Shown: in pieces, positions 4,543-8,885 of the stretch | How the letters are laid out: every line of letters starts with the position of its first letter | How positions within the stretch are numbered: the first letter of the stretch is position 1 | Origin: a virus | Taxonomy: Duplodnaviria > Heunggongvirae > Uroviricota > Caudoviricetes | Virus record (IMG/VR): IMGVR_UViG_2609460067_000009 | DNA length: 8,885 bases | Strand: one strand, 5' to 3' | Program-made: the position numbers and the translations under genes | The notes under the pieces: generated by a model | What the model was told of the DNA's origin: nothing | The model's input: the letters and a program-made list of their open reading frames with translations, nothing else | The model's database searches: none

Positions 4543-5401
4543 AGATGCCTGTTGGCTCGTCCGGCAGGTCAAATGTGGAGCGCAGGCTACGCGCTGTGCT
4601 TTCCAGTTGACAGACCAGGCCTGCCATGAAGTCTCTGGGGGTATCAATCATGTTTTCAGCACAATATGCGCACAGCGTCTCAAAAGCGCTGGACAGTCGG
4701 ACGGCGATAGCAGATTCCGCCTCAACCGCTAATGCTGTTACTTCCGCCCGCAGCTTCTTAACCTCCTCATCAGGCTCAGGCGGCTGAATACGGGATTTCT
4801 TCTCCAGTCTGGTGGAGAGTGAATCTATTTTTTCATTTTTGTCGGCGAGTACGCGCTGTTGTGCTGCGTTGGTTTCGCGCGCTTCGCGCAGGGCCTGACG
4901 CAATTCACGTACTGACATGCGATCAACGTCGTCAAGCGTCAGGCCGGCAACTGTGCCGCCGTCGGCCAATTCATCAAGTTCTTCATTATCCAGAACCATC
5001 AGGTCGTACAGTTTGGCTTTCCCCAAAACGCTCAACGTTGAGCGTTTTGTTGGCTCATCACCTTCTCCCAAAAACTTCATACTGGCTTGCATCATGCGGC
5101 GAGCAACTTGTGGTGCAAGTCCGAGTTCATTTTCTAAAATGTTTGTAAAATCACCGTGTGGCTCATTTTCTTTTAAGATGATCAGCCGCTTACCCGCTTC
5201 CAGCATAGATTCAGCACTCTGCGCCATATAAAAACGTGCTTCGTGAACAATGCGATCACGTTCATAAGGCAGTCCATCACCAAACTGCTGCATAATTTCC
5301 ATGCGATGCTGTGTCATAGCGTTCAAATTGACATTGATGTTATCTGACAGCGGAACCTCAACATTCAGTTCAGTGTTAACGGGTGATTTGGTGCGTCCCA
5401 T
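4535..5401 (-). CDS. hypothetical coiled-coil protein (early operon, between the regulators and the transposase)
   Basis: 288-aa ORF with an AAGGAG ribosome-binding site that overlaps the stop of the upstream gene. The central region is rich in charged heptad-like sequence (RELRQALREARETNAAQQRVLADKNEKIDSLSTRLEKK). No catalytic motif recognised. Confidence 0.6.
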   Translation of the reverse strand: MGRTKSPVNTELNVEVPLSDNINVNLNAMTQHRMEIMQQFGDGLPYERDRIVHEARFYMAQSAESMLEAGKRLIILKENEPHGDFTNILENELGLAPQVARRMMQASMKFLGEGDEPTKRSTLSVLGKAKLYDLMVLDNEELDELADGGTVAGLTLDDVDRMSVRELRQALREARETNAAQQRVLADKNEKIDSLSTRLEKKSRIQPPEPDEEVKKLRAEVTALAVEAESAIAVRLSSAFETLCAYCAENMIDTPRDFMAGLVCQLESTARSLRSTFDLPDEPTGICD

Positions 5402-5411
5402 TGATTACTCC

Positions 5412-5720
5412 TTACAAACGACTACCTGAAATAACTCGTTGGTTGATTTCGTTAATACGATCCTGTGCACGCGCCATCTCGTGACTGTGAGCCATGGCGA
5501 TCTGTAGTAACTGGATTCCCGGTGCGAAACGTCCGTTCTCTAATTTCATGGCCAGTCCCTCTTCAATAAGGGTATTAAGTGCTCGATTGATATTCGCCGG
5601 GGACTCCCCCAGGGCTGATGCCAGTTCACCGTTAGAAACACCGTTCAGAGCATGACCGCGTAGAGCTTTGAGTACACGTAGGATGCGGGTCCCAGAACTG
5701 GAAATATTTACTTTACTCAT
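5412..5720 (-). CDS. winged-helix/HTH DNA-binding protein
   Basis: About 102 aa from the ATG at 5720. HTH-like segment (VSNGELASALGESPANINRALNTLIEEGL). The longer ORF-track start at 5783 would overlap the upstream gene and is rejected. Confidence 0.6.
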   Translation of the reverse strand: MSKVNISSSGTRILRVLKALRGHALNGVSNGELASALGESPANINRALNTLIEEGLAMKLENGRFAPGIQLLQIAMAHSHEMARAQDRINEINQRVISGSRL

Positions 5721-5772
5721 GTCACATTTCCATTTTTGCAATATGTGATAACCTGTTGCATATGTGGAAAAT
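5721..5772. promoter_or_regulatory. intergenic region with direct repeats TTGCA(A)TATGTG (putative regulator-binding sites)
   Basis: TTGCAATATGTG at 5736-5747 and TTGCATATGTG at 5757-5767. The 10-mer ATATGTGATA at 5741-5750 recurs exactly at 5998-6007 in the divergent control region. Confidence 0.35.
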
Positions 5773-5961
5773 TTATGCCGCATTTGACGTGGGTTTTAAT
5801 CCCAGTTTTACGGCAATTTCATGGGCTTTGCCGTAACGAGCTTTGGTCTGTCCATTGAGAACACGATAGACCTCATTGCGGCTGTAGCCGTGTTCTTCGG
5901 CCCAGCGGGTAAACGTGATACCACGCTGACGGAAGAGATTTTTAACTTGTTCGGAAGTCAT
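5773..5961 (-). CDS. small HTH DNA-binding protein at the Ner/Cro-equivalent position (Ner-like)
   Basis: 62-aa ORF, first gene of the minus-strand early operon, divergent from the repressor-like gene. Excellent AAGGAGA ribosome-binding site 5 nt upstream. Pattern RG-x-T-F-x-x-W-A-x-E-x-G...IA-x-x-LG resembles the Ner/Nlp family as I recall it. Confidence 0.55.
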   Translation of the reverse strand: MTSEQVKNLFRQRGITFTRWAEEHGYSRNEVYRVLNGQTKARYGKAHEIAVKLGLKPTSNAA

Positions 5962-6047
5962 TGTTGTCTCCTTTGTTGATGCAATGATGTTTGTTTTATA
6001 TGTGATAGATTATGAGAACTATTGTTCTCATTGTCAATGAGGTTTAT
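5962..6047. promoter_or_regulatory. divergent early/repressor control region (overlapping promoters and operator)
   Basis: AT-rich spacer between divergently oriented genes. Contains candidate -35/-10 elements (TTGATG ... TATATG), the ATATGTGATA motif and a perfect 8-4-8 inverted repeat. Confidence 0.45.
6012..6031. repeat. perfect inverted repeat ATGAGAAC-TATT-GTTCTCAT (candidate operator)
   Basis: 8-bp arms are exact reverse complements with a 4-bp spacer. It sits between the divergent promoters and the likely repressor start. Confidence 0.6.
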
Positions 6048-6473
6048 GTGAATTTTGATTCTCTTTGCGCGTCGCGGTTCAAAGCTGAGCGTTCGCGGTT
6101 ATCACTCAAGCAGGCTGAAGTAGCAGCCCTTTGTGGCGTTTCAAGAGAAATGTGGGGGAAATATGAACGAGGGGTTGCTGTTCCCGGAGGTGAGTTACTT
6201 GCAGCCTTTGCAAGAATTGGGGCCAATGTACAGTTCATTCTTACCGGGGAGTCATCAGGTATAACTTTATCACGTGATGAAATGGAGTTACTGCAGCACT
6301 ACCGGCAGGCACCATTACAGGTCAAAGGTTCAGTTTTGTCGGCCTTGACTACTGGCTCCTCCAGAGAACGGGCGGAACAGGTTATTCATGGAGATGTTCT
6401 GGGGAATGTTATCAAAGGTAACGTAACCATAGGAACAGGTGGAATAATGAACAAAAATACCAAGAGAAGATGA
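6048..6473 (+). CDS. XRE-family HTH transcriptional repressor (c-like lysogeny repressor candidate)
   Basis: HTH_XRE-like segment (LSLKQAEVAALCGVSREMWGKYERG). Divergent from the early operon. Start placed at GTG 6048, which has a GAGG ribosome-binding site 5 nt upstream. The in-frame ATG at 6012 lacks a ribosome-binding site and lies inside the palindrome. No S24 peptidase domain is evident. Confidence 0.65.
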   Translation: MNFDSLCASRFKAERSRLSLKQAEVAALCGVSREMWGKYERGVAVPGGELLAAFARIGANVQFILTGESSGITLSRDEMELLQHYRQAPLQVKGSVLSALTTGSSRERAEQVIHGDVLGNVIKGNVTIGTGGIMNKNTKRR

Positions 6474-7456
6474 GTAAAGAGAAGCAAACAGTTAACGGGG
6501 ATGTGGGTAACGTTGTCAGCGGTGATGTTACCATTCATAACTATTCTGCTGACATACTTCCTTCGGCCCAGCAACCAATTTCGTTGCTGCAAAAACGCGA
6601 TTTACACAGATTGATGGATGAATTGGTTGATCTGGGGGAAAGTAAGCGCGAGCTATGGATGACGATCCACACGAAACTTAATACCAAAACAGTTAATGAA
6701 ATGACTGCGGCTGATTATCATGGTGCGGTTGAGATCCTTCAGAGATATGCACAACAGATCCAGAATATGAAGGACTGTAATCTTCTGGTCAGCAAAATAA
6801 TGGCGCTTACTGACCCTGGGTATCGTCTTGACCGTGACAGATACTGTCTGAAGCATTTCGGTACAACCCATCTTAAAGGCCTAGACAAAGAGCAGTTGCA
6901 GGCTGTGTTTGGTTATTTTGATGATCTGCTGAATATTCGTGATGAGAGTAAAACTCTATCACCTCCATCGGAAAGCGGTGCAAAATCAGTCGCAACTGTA
7001 CCAACCAGAAGCCGGAAGCCTCATGTAGTAGTGTTGGGGGGAGTGTTAGTTCTTGTAGCAATATTTTTCGTGGGAATGATTGTGTTCGCTGGTAAATGGG
7101 GAAATGCCAAAGCAGTAGCTTCTACTGAAACCAGCGTTTTTAACATTAAAACCAACGATAAAATAATAGAAGATTCCATCCCCGCACTGCGCAGCATGTT
7201 TCCAGGGTTAAATAAGTACTCAGATGATTTCCATTCGGTTTCAAGCTACAAGCAAAAAACGGGCTGGCATACCCTTAAATTTACTGTATCAGCAAAGGCA
7301 TCCGTCCCCGAAAATTATAGTGTTAAGGGCAAGGTTTGTTACATTAACATAAGCCCTGATGGTAGTTATGCTCGGGTTTTGACTGCTCCATGTCGTTCAC
7401 TGCTACTTGATCAGCAAAGCACTCCTGACAGTAAATACCGTTTTATTCTTAAATAG
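6470..7456 (+). CDS. single-pass membrane protein, unknown function (cargo gene 1 of repressor operon)
   Basis: 328-aa ORF whose ATG overlaps the repressor stop (ATGA at 6470-6473). One strongly hydrophobic segment (VVVLGGVLVLVAIFFVGMIVFAG) is preceded by basic residues (TRSRKPH). About 185 aa lie before it and about 120 aa after it, with two Cys in the latter. AT-rich codon usage unlike the transposition genes. Confidence 0.65.
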   Translation: MSKEKQTVNGDVGNVVSGDVTIHNYSADILPSAQQPISLLQKRDLHRLMDELVDLGESKRELWMTIHTKLNTKTVNEMTAADYHGAVEILQRYAQQIQNMKDCNLLVSKIMALTDPGYRLDRDRYCLKHFGTTHLKGLDKEQLQAVFGYFDDLLNIRDESKTLSPPSESGAKSVATVPTRSRKPHVVVLGGVLVLVAIFFVGMIVFAGKWGNAKAVASTETSVFNIKTNDKIIEDSIPALRSMFPGLNKYSDDFHSVSSYKQKTGWHTLKFTVSAKASVPENYSVKGKVCYINISPDGSYARVLTAPCRSLLLDQQSTPDSKYRFILK

Positions 7457-7546
7457 AAAATAACAGCTGAATTACCATGGGATCAGAAAAAAGACAAAGG
7501 CGGCATCATGCTGCGTTCTGAAATTTTAATGTAAAAGGTGATGAAC

Positions 7547-8128
7547 ATGGCAGGGATTCAGGTTATCGCAGGAAGTTTTCCTAAAGGGTGGGCAAGCATG
7601 GGGTTCGGTACCATCGTGTTTGCCAAAAAACCAAAACAAGGCTTTCCTGAAAATATTGTATTAAATCTGAAAGAAGAGCTTTTATCGATTGAACTTGCGG
7701 ATAGTGAAGAGGAAAGCCGTATAGGTAAGGCGGCAGGCGCAGGTTTGCTTGGTGGATTAATCTTTGGTGGTGCAGGGTTGGTCATTGGAGGTTTGCTTGG
7801 TGCGGCGGACAAGACGAAAAAAACTATCACTTTTAAGGCAATGTTTACGGGAAATAGGTTACTTCTGGCTAAAACAGATTCAAAAACTTTTGTAAAACTT
7901 CAGTCAATTGCTGCTGATAATGCCCATAACGCATCTGTAATCAACATGAAGCAAACTAACAGGGGCGATGTTTCTTCTCGTAAACAACTAACAGAAAATC
8001 CACAGCAGCAAGACTTACCTGCGCCCGCTACAACAGTAAAAATGACTGCCAAAGATAAGTTAGAATCGGCTCTTGGGCTGGGAATCATCGTTATAGCTGT
8101 TTGGGCAATAATACACTTCTTTTTTTAG
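7547..8128 (+). CDS. glycine-zipper membrane protein, unknown function (cargo gene 2)
   Basis: About 193 aa from the ATG at 7547 (AGGTG ribosome-binding site 6 nt upstream; the ORF-track start at 7538 is a GTG). Glycine-zipper hydrophobic segment GAGLLGGLIFGGAGLVIGGLLG with GxxxG repeats, plus a C-terminal hydrophobic helix (LGLGIIVIAVWAIIHFFF). Confidence 0.6.
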   Translation: MAGIQVIAGSFPKGWASMGFGTIVFAKKPKQGFPENIVLNLKEELLSIELADSEEESRIGKAAGAGLLGGLIFGGAGLVIGGLLGAADKTKKTITFKAMFTGNRLLLAKTDSKTFVKLQSIAADNAHNASVINMKQTNRGDVSSRKQLTENPQQQDLPAPATTVKMTAKDKLESALGLGIIVIAVWAIIHFFF

Positions 8129-8130
8129 TG

Positions 8131-8154
8131 CAGCCCTTCAGGGCTGTTTCTGTT
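8131..8154 (+). terminator. rho-independent terminator (hairpin plus T-tract)
   Basis: CAGCCC-TTCA-GGGCTG stem-loop immediately followed by TTTCTGTT, 3 nt after the stop of the glycine-zipper gene. Confidence 0.5.
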
Positions 8155-8165
8155 CAGGAGGTATC

Positions 8166-8642
8166 TTAAGGATTATCCGGGGCGTTTTCCTGTTTGCCGT
8201 ACTTCGGAGACGAACAACATTCTGTTGGCTGACCGGTGAGTTTACGTAACTCCTTCATGAGCAGCTCCTGATCGTAAACTGTCATCAGTGCCGCAATGGT
8301 GGCATGCAGTGCATCGGGCAGTATCCAGGGTTGCCGGCCCGTGGGGCATATAACATCCAGCAGCTCATTCGTCCGACAGATACGCTCCTCGCCGTATGAC
8401 AACAGGCCCTGTCCCGTGTATTCCTCCAGCCTGATCACTGTGCCACCCCGTGGCTTCTGCCAGGTCGTCAGATCTTCGCCATTCATACGGCGCTCATTCT
8501 CCACGTCAGCAGCATCGACAATGACGCTGTTTCCGAGTTCCTGTTTCACCATCTCTTCTATCCGCGCCAGTACGTAACTTTTACCGCTGCCCACAGGACC
8601 GGACACAGTGACAGTGATGACCGGATTCAGTGTGTGCGTCAT
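8166..8642 (-). CDS. small P-loop NTPase (Walker A), unknown function
   Basis: 158-aa ORF with a GAGGAG ribosome-binding site 8 nt upstream. Walker A GPVGSGKS near the N-terminus and a possible Walker B VIVDAAD. Convergent with the cargo operon; GC-richer than the cargo genes. Confidence 0.6.
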   Translation of the reverse strand: MTHTLNPVITVTVSGPVGSGKSYVLARIEEMVKQELGNSVIVDAADVENERRMNGEDLTTWQKPRGGTVIRLEEYTGQGLLSYGEERICRTNELLDVICPTGRQPWILPDALHATIAALMTVYDQELLMKELRKLTGQPTECCSSPKYGKQENAPDNP

Positions 8643-8772
8643 ATCGTATTCTCCTCTGTGAATAATTCATCGTTTATCCTGCACATCCCGTATCCCCGGC
8701 TCTCTTAACGCGCTTTAAAATCCTTCGCGCCCTGTATTTGTGATGCTGTCTCCACCAGATAAGGAGACACAC

Positions 8773-8885
8773 ATGAAAAACCTGAAAAAATTCATTCCCC
8801 CTGTTAAAAAACCTCGCCTCAGCGGCTGGCTGCTGACCTCAGTGCTGTTGCTGGGCACCATCGCTCTGGTCTCACCACAGCAGCT
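8773..8885 (+). CDS. partial CDS (5' end only): protein with N-terminal signal-anchor or signal peptide
   Basis: AAGGAGA ribosome-binding site 6 nt upstream of the ATG. Basic N-terminus (MKNLKKFIPPVKKPR) followed by a hydrophobic stretch (LSGWLLTSVLLLGTIALV). Runs off the window edge. Confidence 0.4.
   Translation, partial: MKNLKKFIPPVKKPRLSGWLLTSVLLLGTIALVSPQQ

Follow-up and report, generated by a model that had tools for sequence, protein, structure and literature searches.

What do the two membrane-protein genes that directly follow the immunity repressor gene of a Mu-like prophage contribute to the phage? This question was raised by the IMG/VR virus record IMGVR_UViG_2609460067_000009, a stretch of 8,885 nucleotides that is called here the window. 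It contains an XRE-family repressor gene of the helix-turn-helix (HTH) type HTH_31, followed directly by the open reading frames (ORFs) ORF1 and ORF2. The original prediction, made from the nucleotide sequence alone, regarded ORF1 and ORF2 as a single acquired module, comparable to rexA-rexB behind the lambda repressor gene cI and a candidate for a role in exclusion or abortive infection. The results presented here point to another grouping, in which ORF1 is tied to the repressor by a peptide common to the C-terminal end (tail) of the repressor and the N-terminal end (head) of ORF1, and in which ORF2 is a separate gene. This tie argues for regulation of the repressor, or by the repressor, rather than for a Rex-like pair.

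A peptide common to the repressor tail and the ORF1 head

The repressor is composed of an HTH body, dimerisation helices, a Gly/Ser linker, a tail motif and a basic end (NKNTKRR). Its tail HGDVLGNVIKGNVTI matches the head of ORF1 NGDVGNVVSGDVTI; the repressor ends with ...QVIHGDVLGNVIKGNVTIGTGGIMNKNTKRR and ORF1 begins with MSKEKQTVNGDVGNVVSGDVTIHNY. In the window, tail and head are identical in 10 of 14 residues and in 29 of 42 nucleotides (69%), and their local alignment gives z = 8.6 against shuffled heads. For six of the ten shared residues the codons differ, which indicates that selection acts on the peptide. With this nucleotide identity and these codon differences, a recent duplication or gene conversion was rejected as the source of the motif. 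No third copy of the motif was found in the 43 kb of the prophage. Within ORF1, conservation is highest in the head: the residues G10, G13, N14, V15, V16, S17, G18, V20 and I22 are invariant in 18 homologues with an overall identity of 44-82%. On the repressor side, the tail is kept in the proteins of Yersinia and Serratia despite different HTH regions.

Partners of such repressors were gathered from IMG/VR with three sub-family alignments and the upstream ORF on the same strand was extracted, giving 71 loci and 59 distinct pairs (IMG/VR and genomes). The last 40 residues of each repressor were aligned locally with the first 60 residues of its partner and scored as z against shuffled heads. 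The median z of the 59 pairs is 8.5, and 52 of them have a z above 4. Four motif classes were distinguished: A (GDVxGNVxxGxVTI), B (FHGxVGQxxAGxxxN...), C (QQFNGxVxxVxxGDxxN) and D (GxxNRxAGRD[YF]xE). When each tail class is compared with each head class, the mean scores are 54 for A-A, 49 for B-B, 45 for C-C and 51 for D-D, whereas A-D and D-A remain at the background (19-20). Classes B and C cross-match at 34-49, so that there are only two clearly distinct motif types, A/B/C on one hand and D on the other.

Two cases separate the motifs from the proteins that carry them. Over 104 residues, the repressor body of the window has 66% identity with that of an Erwinia P2/186-like prophage, yet the likeness ends at ALTTGSS and the Erwinia tail is of class D (INVSGSGQRVAGRDYHEGEK); the head of the Erwinia partner is also of class D, and this partner is only 25% identical to ORF1. 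At locus L085, the partner has 50% identity with a class-C partner over its length, yet its head is of class D, as is the tail of the repressor. Co-phylogeny as the cause of the co-variation is contradicted by these two swaps and, as far as the alignments tell, the motif pair is a unit that moves independently of both protein bodies.

Co-variation of tail and head is equally expected if both fit one binder. The motif could be a tag that a third protein recognises, for example a protease, adaptor or chaperone of the host, with the ORF1 head acting as a membrane decoy or co-substrate that tunes the stability of the repressor. The motifs are indeed located at the extreme termini beside flexible linkers, a basic end (KKK/KRR) follows the tail, and Mu-type repressors are controlled via their C-terminal ends by ClpXP. 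However, phages of a single host order, the Enterobacterales, have at least two motif types that differ strongly (GDVxGNV and NRxAGRDY), which is hard to square with a single conserved host reader. We regard this explanation as distinctly unlikely.

Distribution of the repressor-partner pair

The repressor and ORF1 were detected in 127 of 5426 complete Escherichia coli genomes, including the probiotic strain M-17, and always together (127/127). When the reference proteins were mapped on 40 related loci, this repressor type was always found directly before ORF1 in E. coli, Salmonella, Yersinia and Serratia, whatever gene comes next; ORF1 also accompanies it in Morganella. In P2-like prophages the order is repressor, partner and integrase. 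In the Erwinia P2/186-like prophage L118 (5035-5991), two tandem repressor paralogues with the same class-D tail (INVSGSGQRVAGRDYHEG.K) precede one partner and, in the sister strain (L119), a YebY-like secreted protein is encoded between repressor and partner. The integrase of a Yersinia P2-like prophage (L120, 8231-10079) is followed by an AAA_15/AAA_21 ATPase (446 amino acids) and an ORF of 172 amino acids, which look like a defence-type pair at the prophage end.

An independent sample was chosen by homology to the repressor body only. It comprised 163 GenBank phage records, mostly from Ralstonia, Burkholderia and Pseudomonas, of which 14 were examined. A tail with a matching head on the next membrane protein was found in BcepMu (gp17/gp18), phiE255 (gp46/gp47), AP3 (gp39/gp38), phiE094 (gp34/gp33), RsoM1USA and its relatives, Ps59 (gp17/gp18) and YO037_1. 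The tail-less repressors of YO356_1, Rashabar and Ps60 have no such partner. In BcepMu and phiE255, the genes of the repressor and of the membrane protein overlap by 4 bp. The body of BcepMu gp18 has no detectable homology to ORF1 (hhalign probability 0.4%); gp18 was consequently rejected as an ORF1 homologue, its equivalence being positional only. Ps59 gp18 lacks the Flk_N domain and contains two membrane helices, whereas the partners of AP3 and RsoM1USA, which are more distant, are possibly related to the partner family. What is constant across the partners is the tail of the XRE repressor and a cytoplasmic N-terminal head on the membrane protein encoded next.

A tblastn search of 50,697 GenBank phage records with ORF1 and the partners P0051 and P0048 gave a sole match to the partner family, in Escherichia phage 520873 (NC_049344). 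In this phage, the partner gene (L043, 3284-3896), located behind the repressor gp04, is unannotated and is split by a frameshift into ORFs of 55 and 115 amino acids. In Ralstonia phage RsoM1USA (L121, 1196-2430), an insertion sequence of the IS2 type is located immediately upstream of the repressor, which is annotated only as a misc_feature; given this annotation beside the insertion, the repressor may be disrupted at its 5' end. The repressor of Pseudomonas phage Komp_PAO1_1 (L134, 1860-2393) has a clear class-B/C tail (QSFHGPVGQAAQGDIKNGPGFVLNV); the protein encoded next has a signal peptide but no head that fits this tail, which is thus an orphan.

No functional study was found in the literature on BcepMu gp17/gp18 or on any other partner, and the partners are annotated only as membrane or hypothetical proteins. 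A term search of three papers on amyloid signalling found no mention of repressors or HTH proteins. The matched repressor-partner pair is widespread in the immunity regions of temperate phages and apparently undescribed.

Architecture of ORF1

Both products had been predicted to be membrane proteins, and hydropathy and AlphaFold (AF2) models agree: ORF2 has a glycine zipper and a C-terminal helix, and ORF1 is predicted to be single-pass, not polytopic. The only hydrophobic stretch of ORF1 covers residues ~185-207 (KD19 up to 3.05) and, because basic residues (RSRKPH) precede it, the N-terminus would be in the cytoplasm. Two invariant cysteines in the C-terminal domain are expected of a periplasmic domain. 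The AF2 model, built with an alignment of 18 sequences, displays a disordered head (residues 1-30), a helical domain (31-158), a disordered linker, a helix (188-207) and an alpha/beta domain (221-328). No convincing match to the ORF1 domains was found among solved (PDB) or viral predicted (BFVD) structures, and sequence searches of the PDB gave no matches for ORF1 or ORF2. In the local Pfam-A, ORF1 has only sub-threshold matches (for ORF1 and ORF2 together, matches such as DUF6480, Cut8 and C19orf12). Nothing exceeds the curated cut-off in the local NCBIfam, where the Flk match is sub-threshold, and PADLOC-DB v2 gave no significant match (best PDC-M19B, E = 0.014).

Homology links the helical domain to the N-terminal domain of Flk. 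Precomputed matches to the Pfam family Flk_N (PF27202) exist on members of the partner family, marked weak on the ORF1 relatives, and ORF1 is aligned with E. coli Flk by BLASTP (1e-5) and by hhalign (2.5e-5). Flk (Fluke/RflH) faces the cytoplasm, is anchored by its tail and inhibits the secretion-specificity switch of the flagellum (PMC13344023). From this domain-level homology, ORF1 could be taken for a phage version of Flk: it would then target the export gate of the flagellar type III system and alter motility or block flagellotropic phages. The NCBIfam equivalog Flk (NF007987) is nevertheless matched over residues 19-147 only, with E = 2.9e-12 and a score of 46.6 bits that is far under the family cut-off of 353. 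Moreover, E. coli Flk has no head motif, judged from its BLASTP-aligned N-terminal residues, and the partners of other phages have unrelated bodies (BcepMu gp18, Ps59 gp18). Such a flagellar role is very improbable. Literature searches for Flk with prophage, and for Mu-like repressor with membrane protein, found no functional study. In the class-D partner P0051, residues 50-104 (the first half of the Flk_N-like domain) have a weak match to the "anti-repressor Ant" phrog_245 (E = 6e-6) and to phrog_2812; unlike P0051, ORF1 itself does not match phrog_245.

An exhaustive profile search divides the relatives of ORF1 into two families. The first contains proteins of ~190-270 amino acids made of the head, the Flk_N-like domain and a C-terminal anchor (phrog_5825). 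The second contains small lipoproteins with the periplasmic domain alone. This stand-alone form (lipobox LSGC) occupies the same slot in Serratia (L013, 7135-7662), behind ORF1, and in Klebsiella phage KP12 (L042, 4486-5019), behind a tail-less repressor. Since both parts occur separately, and the lipoprotein form in the same slot, ORF1 seems to have arisen by fusion of a tail-anchored protein linked to the repressor with the domain of a neighbouring lysogeny-expressed lipoprotein. Many relatives (P0041, P0053, P0055, P0085) add the C-terminal motif ILPxTPDNKPPRxGC...W.CP.

The periplasmic domain raises the possibility that ORF1 acts on the envelope, in lysogenic conversion or superinfection exclusion, the link with the repressor being one of co-expression and the motif incidental. 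This domain is very confidently folded in the AF2 model and has a conserved cysteine pair. It is found alone as a lipoprotein in the same slot (KP12, Serratia) and in many other small lipoproteins, and phage lipoproteins such as Cor and Llp block receptors. On the other hand, most family members have no periplasmic domain and yet keep the head motif and the linkage to the repressor, and it is the head that is best conserved in ORF1. We consider it improbable that the envelope is where ORF1 as a whole exerts its function.

ORF2 and the variable slot behind ORF1

The original prediction could assign ORF1 and ORF2 to no described defence family, and the family searches agree: nothing exceeds the curated cut-off in the local Pfam-A, nor, for ORF2, in NCBIfam, and ORF2 and the alternative cargo genes have no significant match in PADLOC-DB v2. 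The Pfam name PH_gly_zipper (PF27000) comes from precomputed matches on ORF2 homologues only, marked weak. The family is narrow (12 clusters, all from Enterobacterales), the AF2 model has a predicted local distance difference test (pLDDT) score of 34, too low for a fold search, and no functional study of a glycine zipper with a PH domain was found in the literature. Since, in the conserved blocks, both flanks of the glycine zipper are basic, they probably face the cytoplasm, the zipper forming a re-entrant hairpin and the last helix an anchor.

ORF2 is present in 101 of the 5426 E. coli genomes, in 97 of them at full length. ORF1 occurs without ORF2 in Yersinia, Serratia, Salmonella and ~27 E. 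coli genomes; conversely, in Citrobacter prophages an ORF2 homologue (71% identity) follows an unrelated Phage_CI_repr repressor of 121 amino acids, and there is no ORF1. The Morganella copy of ORF1 is 74% identical to that of the window, vs 97% for ORF2, a contrast that indicates separate histories. Because each gene is found without the other, ORF1 and ORF2 are, on this distribution, not one module, Rex-like or otherwise, and the original prediction fails on this point.

Comparison of the DNA places mosaic joints just past ORF1 (~7461-7467) and just ahead of ORF2 (~7533), and the slot between ORF1 and the holin gene holds variable cargo. In E. coli it contains ORF2 and a P-loop gene, which is convergent with ORF2 and has the terminator region in common with it. 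In other genera a Dam methylase takes the place of the P-loop gene, with or without an ORF of 91 amino acids. The slot holds a membrane protein of 249 amino acids and Dam in Yersinia, Dam alone in Serratia, three small ORFs in Salmonella and a lipoprotein in Serratia sp. Ag1. A second E. coli type (L021, 7008-8604) has, behind a 95%-identical ORF1, a protein of 203 amino acids without family and a DUF2441 protein of 191 amino acids; a near-identical DUF2441 gene is also present in KP12 (L042, 6081-6647). The comparison of related prophages suggested with the original prediction was thus carried out on the 40 loci and found variability between ORF1 and the holin gene, ORF1 being constant. Accordingly, the idea of acquired cargo is borne out for ORF2 and for the slot, and not for ORF1, which is fixed after the repressor in all 127 E. 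coli genomes.

These data bear on an exclusion or abortive-infection function in lysogens, for which three forms can be imagined: ORF1 and ORF2 as a Rex-like pair, the repressor and ORF1 as sensor and effector through templating of tail and head, or ORF2 as a separate pore-forming effector. Both genes are in the repressor operon and membrane-facing, the slot behind ORF1 is variable like defence hotspots, and the glycine zipper of ORF2 is a motif of membrane-channel formers. In addition, the only experimentally characterised bacterial pair found with a motif shared between a C-terminus and an N-terminus, Bab/Agp, acts in abortive infection and comes from E. coli prophage hotspots. Against this, ORF1 and ORF2 are not co-inherited and PADLOC gave no significant match. 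The ORF1-type partners are fixed beside one repressor type across Mu-like and P2-like phages, unlike swappable defence cargo, and most of them consist of a tail anchor and a protein-binding helical domain only, with no recognisable killing domain. Taken over its three forms, such a function is unlikely; it is possible, and least unlikely, for ORF2.

Comparison with known systems

The closest known layout is, by analogy, that of the amyloid-signalling gene pairs such as Bab/Agp, a likeness that concerns the layout and not a profile of the bacterial amyloid signalling sequences (BASS). In Bab/Agp of the E. coli prophage hotspots, both products have the motif BASS11, one C-terminally and the next one N-terminally, and phage infection makes the sensor template the effector. 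The Bell/NLR pairs have the same arrangement of C- and N-terminal motifs. As in Bab/Agp, in the Bell/NLR BASS pairs and in the fungal HET-S/NWD2, the genes studied here are adjacent, and a motif of ~15-25 residues, rich in Gly/Asn/Gln and in hydrophobic residues, is placed C-terminally in the product of the first gene and N-terminally in that of the second. In the window these are residues 126-144 of the repressor and 9-25 of ORF1. Here too the motif families vary between loci and match within a pair, as is visible in the diagonal of the class comparison (45-54, against 19-20 for A with D) and in the two swap cases, and one of the partners is membrane-targeting. Bab/Agp is also, like the window locus, prophage-borne in E. 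coli. Unlike in these pairs, the upstream product is an HTH_31 DNA-binding repressor and not a pore-forming effector of the Bell/HeLo type, and the downstream product is a small Flk_N-like tail-anchored membrane protein and not an NLR/TPR sensor.

The parallel drawn earlier with lambda cI-rexA-rexB survives as one of position. As in lambda, ORF1 and ORF2 belong to the operon of the immunity repressor and are for this reason plausibly expressed in the lysogen, and the membrane is the site of at least one product. No sequence or profile similarity to RexA or RexB was found, however, and ORF1 and ORF2 are not inherited together. RexA and RexB are not known to share a motif with cI. With Flk, ORF1 has in common a cytoplasm-facing helical Flk_N domain that is tethered by a transmembrane helix located C-terminal to it; it differs by its single Flk_N unit, its additional head motif, its periplasmic domain and its location in a phage immunity operon.

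In its proposed logic, ORF1 would resemble PtsG, by which Mlc is captured at the membrane, and the phage antirepressors Ant, Tum and Qtip, in that a partner binds or aggregates the repressor and removes it from the DNA. The known antirepressors are nevertheless soluble and belong to separately controlled units, usually induced by the SOS response or by a signal, whereas ORF1 is predicted to be membrane-bound, is co-translated with the repressor and has a peptide in common with it. The nearest counterparts are BcepMu gp17/gp18, phiE255 gp46/gp47, Ps59 gp17/gp18, AP3 gp39/gp38 and RsoM1USA gp35/gp34, in which a repressor is followed by a "membrane protein" with the same logic of tail and head, although the body of BcepMu gp18 is not detectably homologous to that of ORF1.

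A candidate immunity pair coupled by its termini

We propose, tentatively and with a confidence somewhat short of even, that the repressor and ORF1 form an immunity pair coupled through tail and head, ORF1 being a membrane sensor or anti-repressor that controls the availability of the repressor, and that ORF2 is separate, exchanged cargo. ORF1 would be a single-pass inner-membrane protein, with its N-terminus and the Flk_N-like domain in the cytoplasm and a small disulfide-bonded domain in the periplasm. Its first ~25 residues would present a short, beta-strand-like peptide rich in Gly, Asn, Asp and Val, the same as at the end of the repressor. Head and tail may associate by strand pairing or by amyloid-like co-assembly; another possibility is that the Flk_N-like domain has a site for the tail, which the head would occupy by mimicry. 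A clustering or a change of state of ORF1, caused by a signal from the envelope or the membrane and possibly by phage attack, would then capture repressor tails, leave less free repressor and shift the lysogeny switch. Control of free repressor is the simplest consequence to envisage because the output of the repressor is repression. The data themselves give the gene order and overlap, the topology (by hydropathy and AF2), the homology to Flk_N, the identity and co-variation of the motifs, the presence of head and tail in one compartment and the independence of ORF2; the physical contact of head and tail, the direction of signalling and the effect on induction are the parts of this scheme that we infer. 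ORF2 would be unrelated to the pair: a horizontally exchanged protein with a split, cytoplasm-facing PH-like domain, an inserted glycine-zipper hairpin and a tail anchor.

Several points weigh against such a coupled pair. An anti-repressor that is co-transcribed with its repressor needs an additional trigger, and the co-variation fits a shared third-party binder as well as a direct contact. In the AF2 model of the ORF1 monomer the head is disordered (pLDDT ~41). The z score is below 4 in 7 of the 59 pairs, five of which (L073, L078, L079, L089, L115) have no recognisable tail. In the sample selected by repressor body, the z scores are modest (1.5-4.2), the matches being visible by eye, and two RsoM1USA relatives are negative; their values, which are the scores as first computed, are attributed to over-extended start calls. 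Komp_PAO1_1 has a tail without an adjacent partner. Finally, the stand-alone lipoprotein of KP12 sits behind a tail-less repressor, and the data suggest for part of ORF1 an envelope function unconnected to the repressor.

A bolder version of the coupled pair, which we hold to be rather doubtful, can be drawn from the analogy with amyloid signalling. The pair would be an unrecognised component of the switch in Mu-like and P2-like phages of Proteobacteria, in which the peptide of a membrane sensor templates, or zips onto, the identical peptide of the repressor in a prion-like manner. Envelope events would thereby lead to inactivation of the repressor and to prophage induction; in the reversed direction, the same device would be a trigger of abortive infection.

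The prophage and its repressor operon

The whole 8.9-kb window is 100% identical to a part of a prophage found in many E. coli chromosomes, and the layout of the surrounding 43 kb was taken from E. coli strain AR_0015 (NZ_CP024862.1). The early arm is encoded on the minus strand and contains, from grxA inward, Mor, gp16/GemA, Gam, an ExeA-type B protein, a DDE transposase, DUF3102, an IclR-like HTH protein and a Ner-like HTH protein. The immunity region (repressor, ORF1 and ORF2) follows on the plus strand. Beyond the P-loop gene of AR_0015 are found a holin, an SLT lysin, a lipoprotein, Mu gp27, the terminase, the Mu portal, Mu F and a P2-like tail. The gene content identifies the element as a BcepMu-like transposable E. 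coli prophage with an inverted early operon. The gene order matches that of BcepMu and phiE255: as in the Bcepmuvirus type, the repressor is central, with the early operon diverging from it on one side and the lysis and Mu-type head genes coming after it on the other (annotated context). The Ner-like gene and the lysis cassette lie on either side of the repressor, in agreement with BcepMu gp16/gp17...gp21, for which the KS10 paper gives gp16 as DNA-binding protein, gp17 as repressor and gp21 as holin. The expectation that the repressor should be close to the end of a Mu element was therefore mistaken here and, with a central repressor, the 1.6 kb behind it are not extra DNA beyond a Mu end. 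A scan of the window with Rfam gave no match. In the AR_0015 copy (L001, 36953-40165), the tape-measure gene and the next tail gene are annotated as truncated pseudogenes, and for this reason that prophage may be defective.

The features of the window are listed in Table 1. Within the operon, the description given in the original prediction was accurate: ORF1 and ORF2 are co-directional with the repressor gene, the repressor and ORF1 are joined by an ATGA overlap (stop TGA 6471-6473, start ATG 6470-6472), and a hairpin terminator closes the unit. This hairpin, between the convergent ORF2 and P-loop genes, is the sole terminator-like site in 5400-8885. The 4-bp overlap is also present in the loci of Yersinia, Serratia and Salmonella; among the 71 related loci, the distance between repressor and partner is -4 in 15 and +2 or +3 in 25. 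With one terminator and genes that overlap or are closely spaced, repressor and partner are likely co-transcribed, and expression of ORF1 and ORF2 in lysogens is plausible since both belong to the transcription unit of the repressor, which is lysogenic. A fusion of the repressor to ORF1 by a -1 frameshift was rejected, the frame of ORF1 being open only from 6422 and no canonical slippery heptamer being visible by eye.

Two start codons were revised. The repressor probably starts at GTG 6048 (141 amino acids) instead of the annotated ATG 6012 (153 amino acids). The GTG is located behind GAGG, the Erwinia homologue begins with MNFDSL and the Salmonella homologue has 141 amino acids, whereas ATG 6012 has no Shine-Dalgarno sequence and overlaps a promoter-like site of the minus strand. 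With a start at 6048, this site falls inside the divergent control region. For ORF2 (7538/7547-8128), the start is most likely ATG 7547, which has AAGGTG 6 nucleotides upstream and agrees with the RefSeq call and with the full length of phrog_12025.

Table 1. Features of the repressor operon and of its neighbours in the window (positions of the 8,885-nucleotide stretch).
Feature	Coordinates	Strand	Residues	Remarks
Ner-like early gene	5773-5961	minus		phrog_925 HTH DNA-binding protein, 1.3e-32
Divergent control region	5962-6047			between Ner-like early gene and repressor; holds minus-strand promoter-like site
Strong promoter-like site	6037->6009	minus		TTGACA-17-CATAAT, 11/12 matches
XRE-family immunity repressor	6012-6473	plus		Pfam HTH_31, 4.7e-7; phrog_8; NCBIfam RstR/DicA-like
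Repressor C-terminal tail motif HGDVLGNVIKGNVTIGTGG	6387-6443	plus	126-144	
ATGA stop/start overlap, repressor/ORF1	6470-6473	plus		translational coupling
ORF1, membrane partner of the repressor	6470-7456	plus	328 in total	phrog_10002
ORF1 N-terminal head motif NGDVGNVVSGDVTIHNY	6494-6544	plus	9-25	
ORF1 cytoplasmic helical domain (predicted)	6560-6943	plus	31-158	homologous to Flk N-terminal domain; AF2 pLDDT ~90
ORF1 single transmembrane helix (predicted)	7022-7090	plus	~185-207	RSRKPH on N-terminal side
ORF1 periplasmic alpha/beta domain (predicted)	7130-7453	plus	221-328	invariant C290 and C308; AF2 pLDDT >90
ORF2, independent cargo gene	7547-8128	plus	193 in total	phrog_12025; Pfam name PF27000 PH_gly_zipper
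ORF2 glycine-zipper hydrophobic stretch GAGLLGGLIFGGAGLVIGGLLGA	7730-7810	plus	62-88	
ORF2 C-terminal transmembrane helix (tail anchor, predicted)	8060-8125	plus	172-193	
Hairpin terminator	8130-8147 (feature 8130-8156)	plus		7-bp stem, 5 G-C pairs, T-rich tail; 2 nucleotides past ORF2 stop
P-loop protein	8166-8642	minus	158 in total	GPVGSGKS; phrog_3787; RefSeq name "ABC transporter ATPase"

Significance for temperate phages

How Mu-like and P2-like prophages without a cleavable repressor of the LexA type sense the time of exit is poorly understood. If the proposed pairing is true, the shared terminal peptide would be a concrete route from the cell envelope to the genetic switch, and signalling by matched motifs of the amyloid type would extend from cell-death effectors to transcription factors. 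Experiments would be straightforward, since the pair is present in the cultured phages BcepMu, AP3, RsoM1USA and Ps59 and in the 127 E. coli genomes. For annotation, the result puts right an entire family of "hypothetical membrane proteins" and sets it apart from the variable cargo (ORF2, the P-loop gene, Dam and others); the variable slot itself would be the place to seek defence genes.

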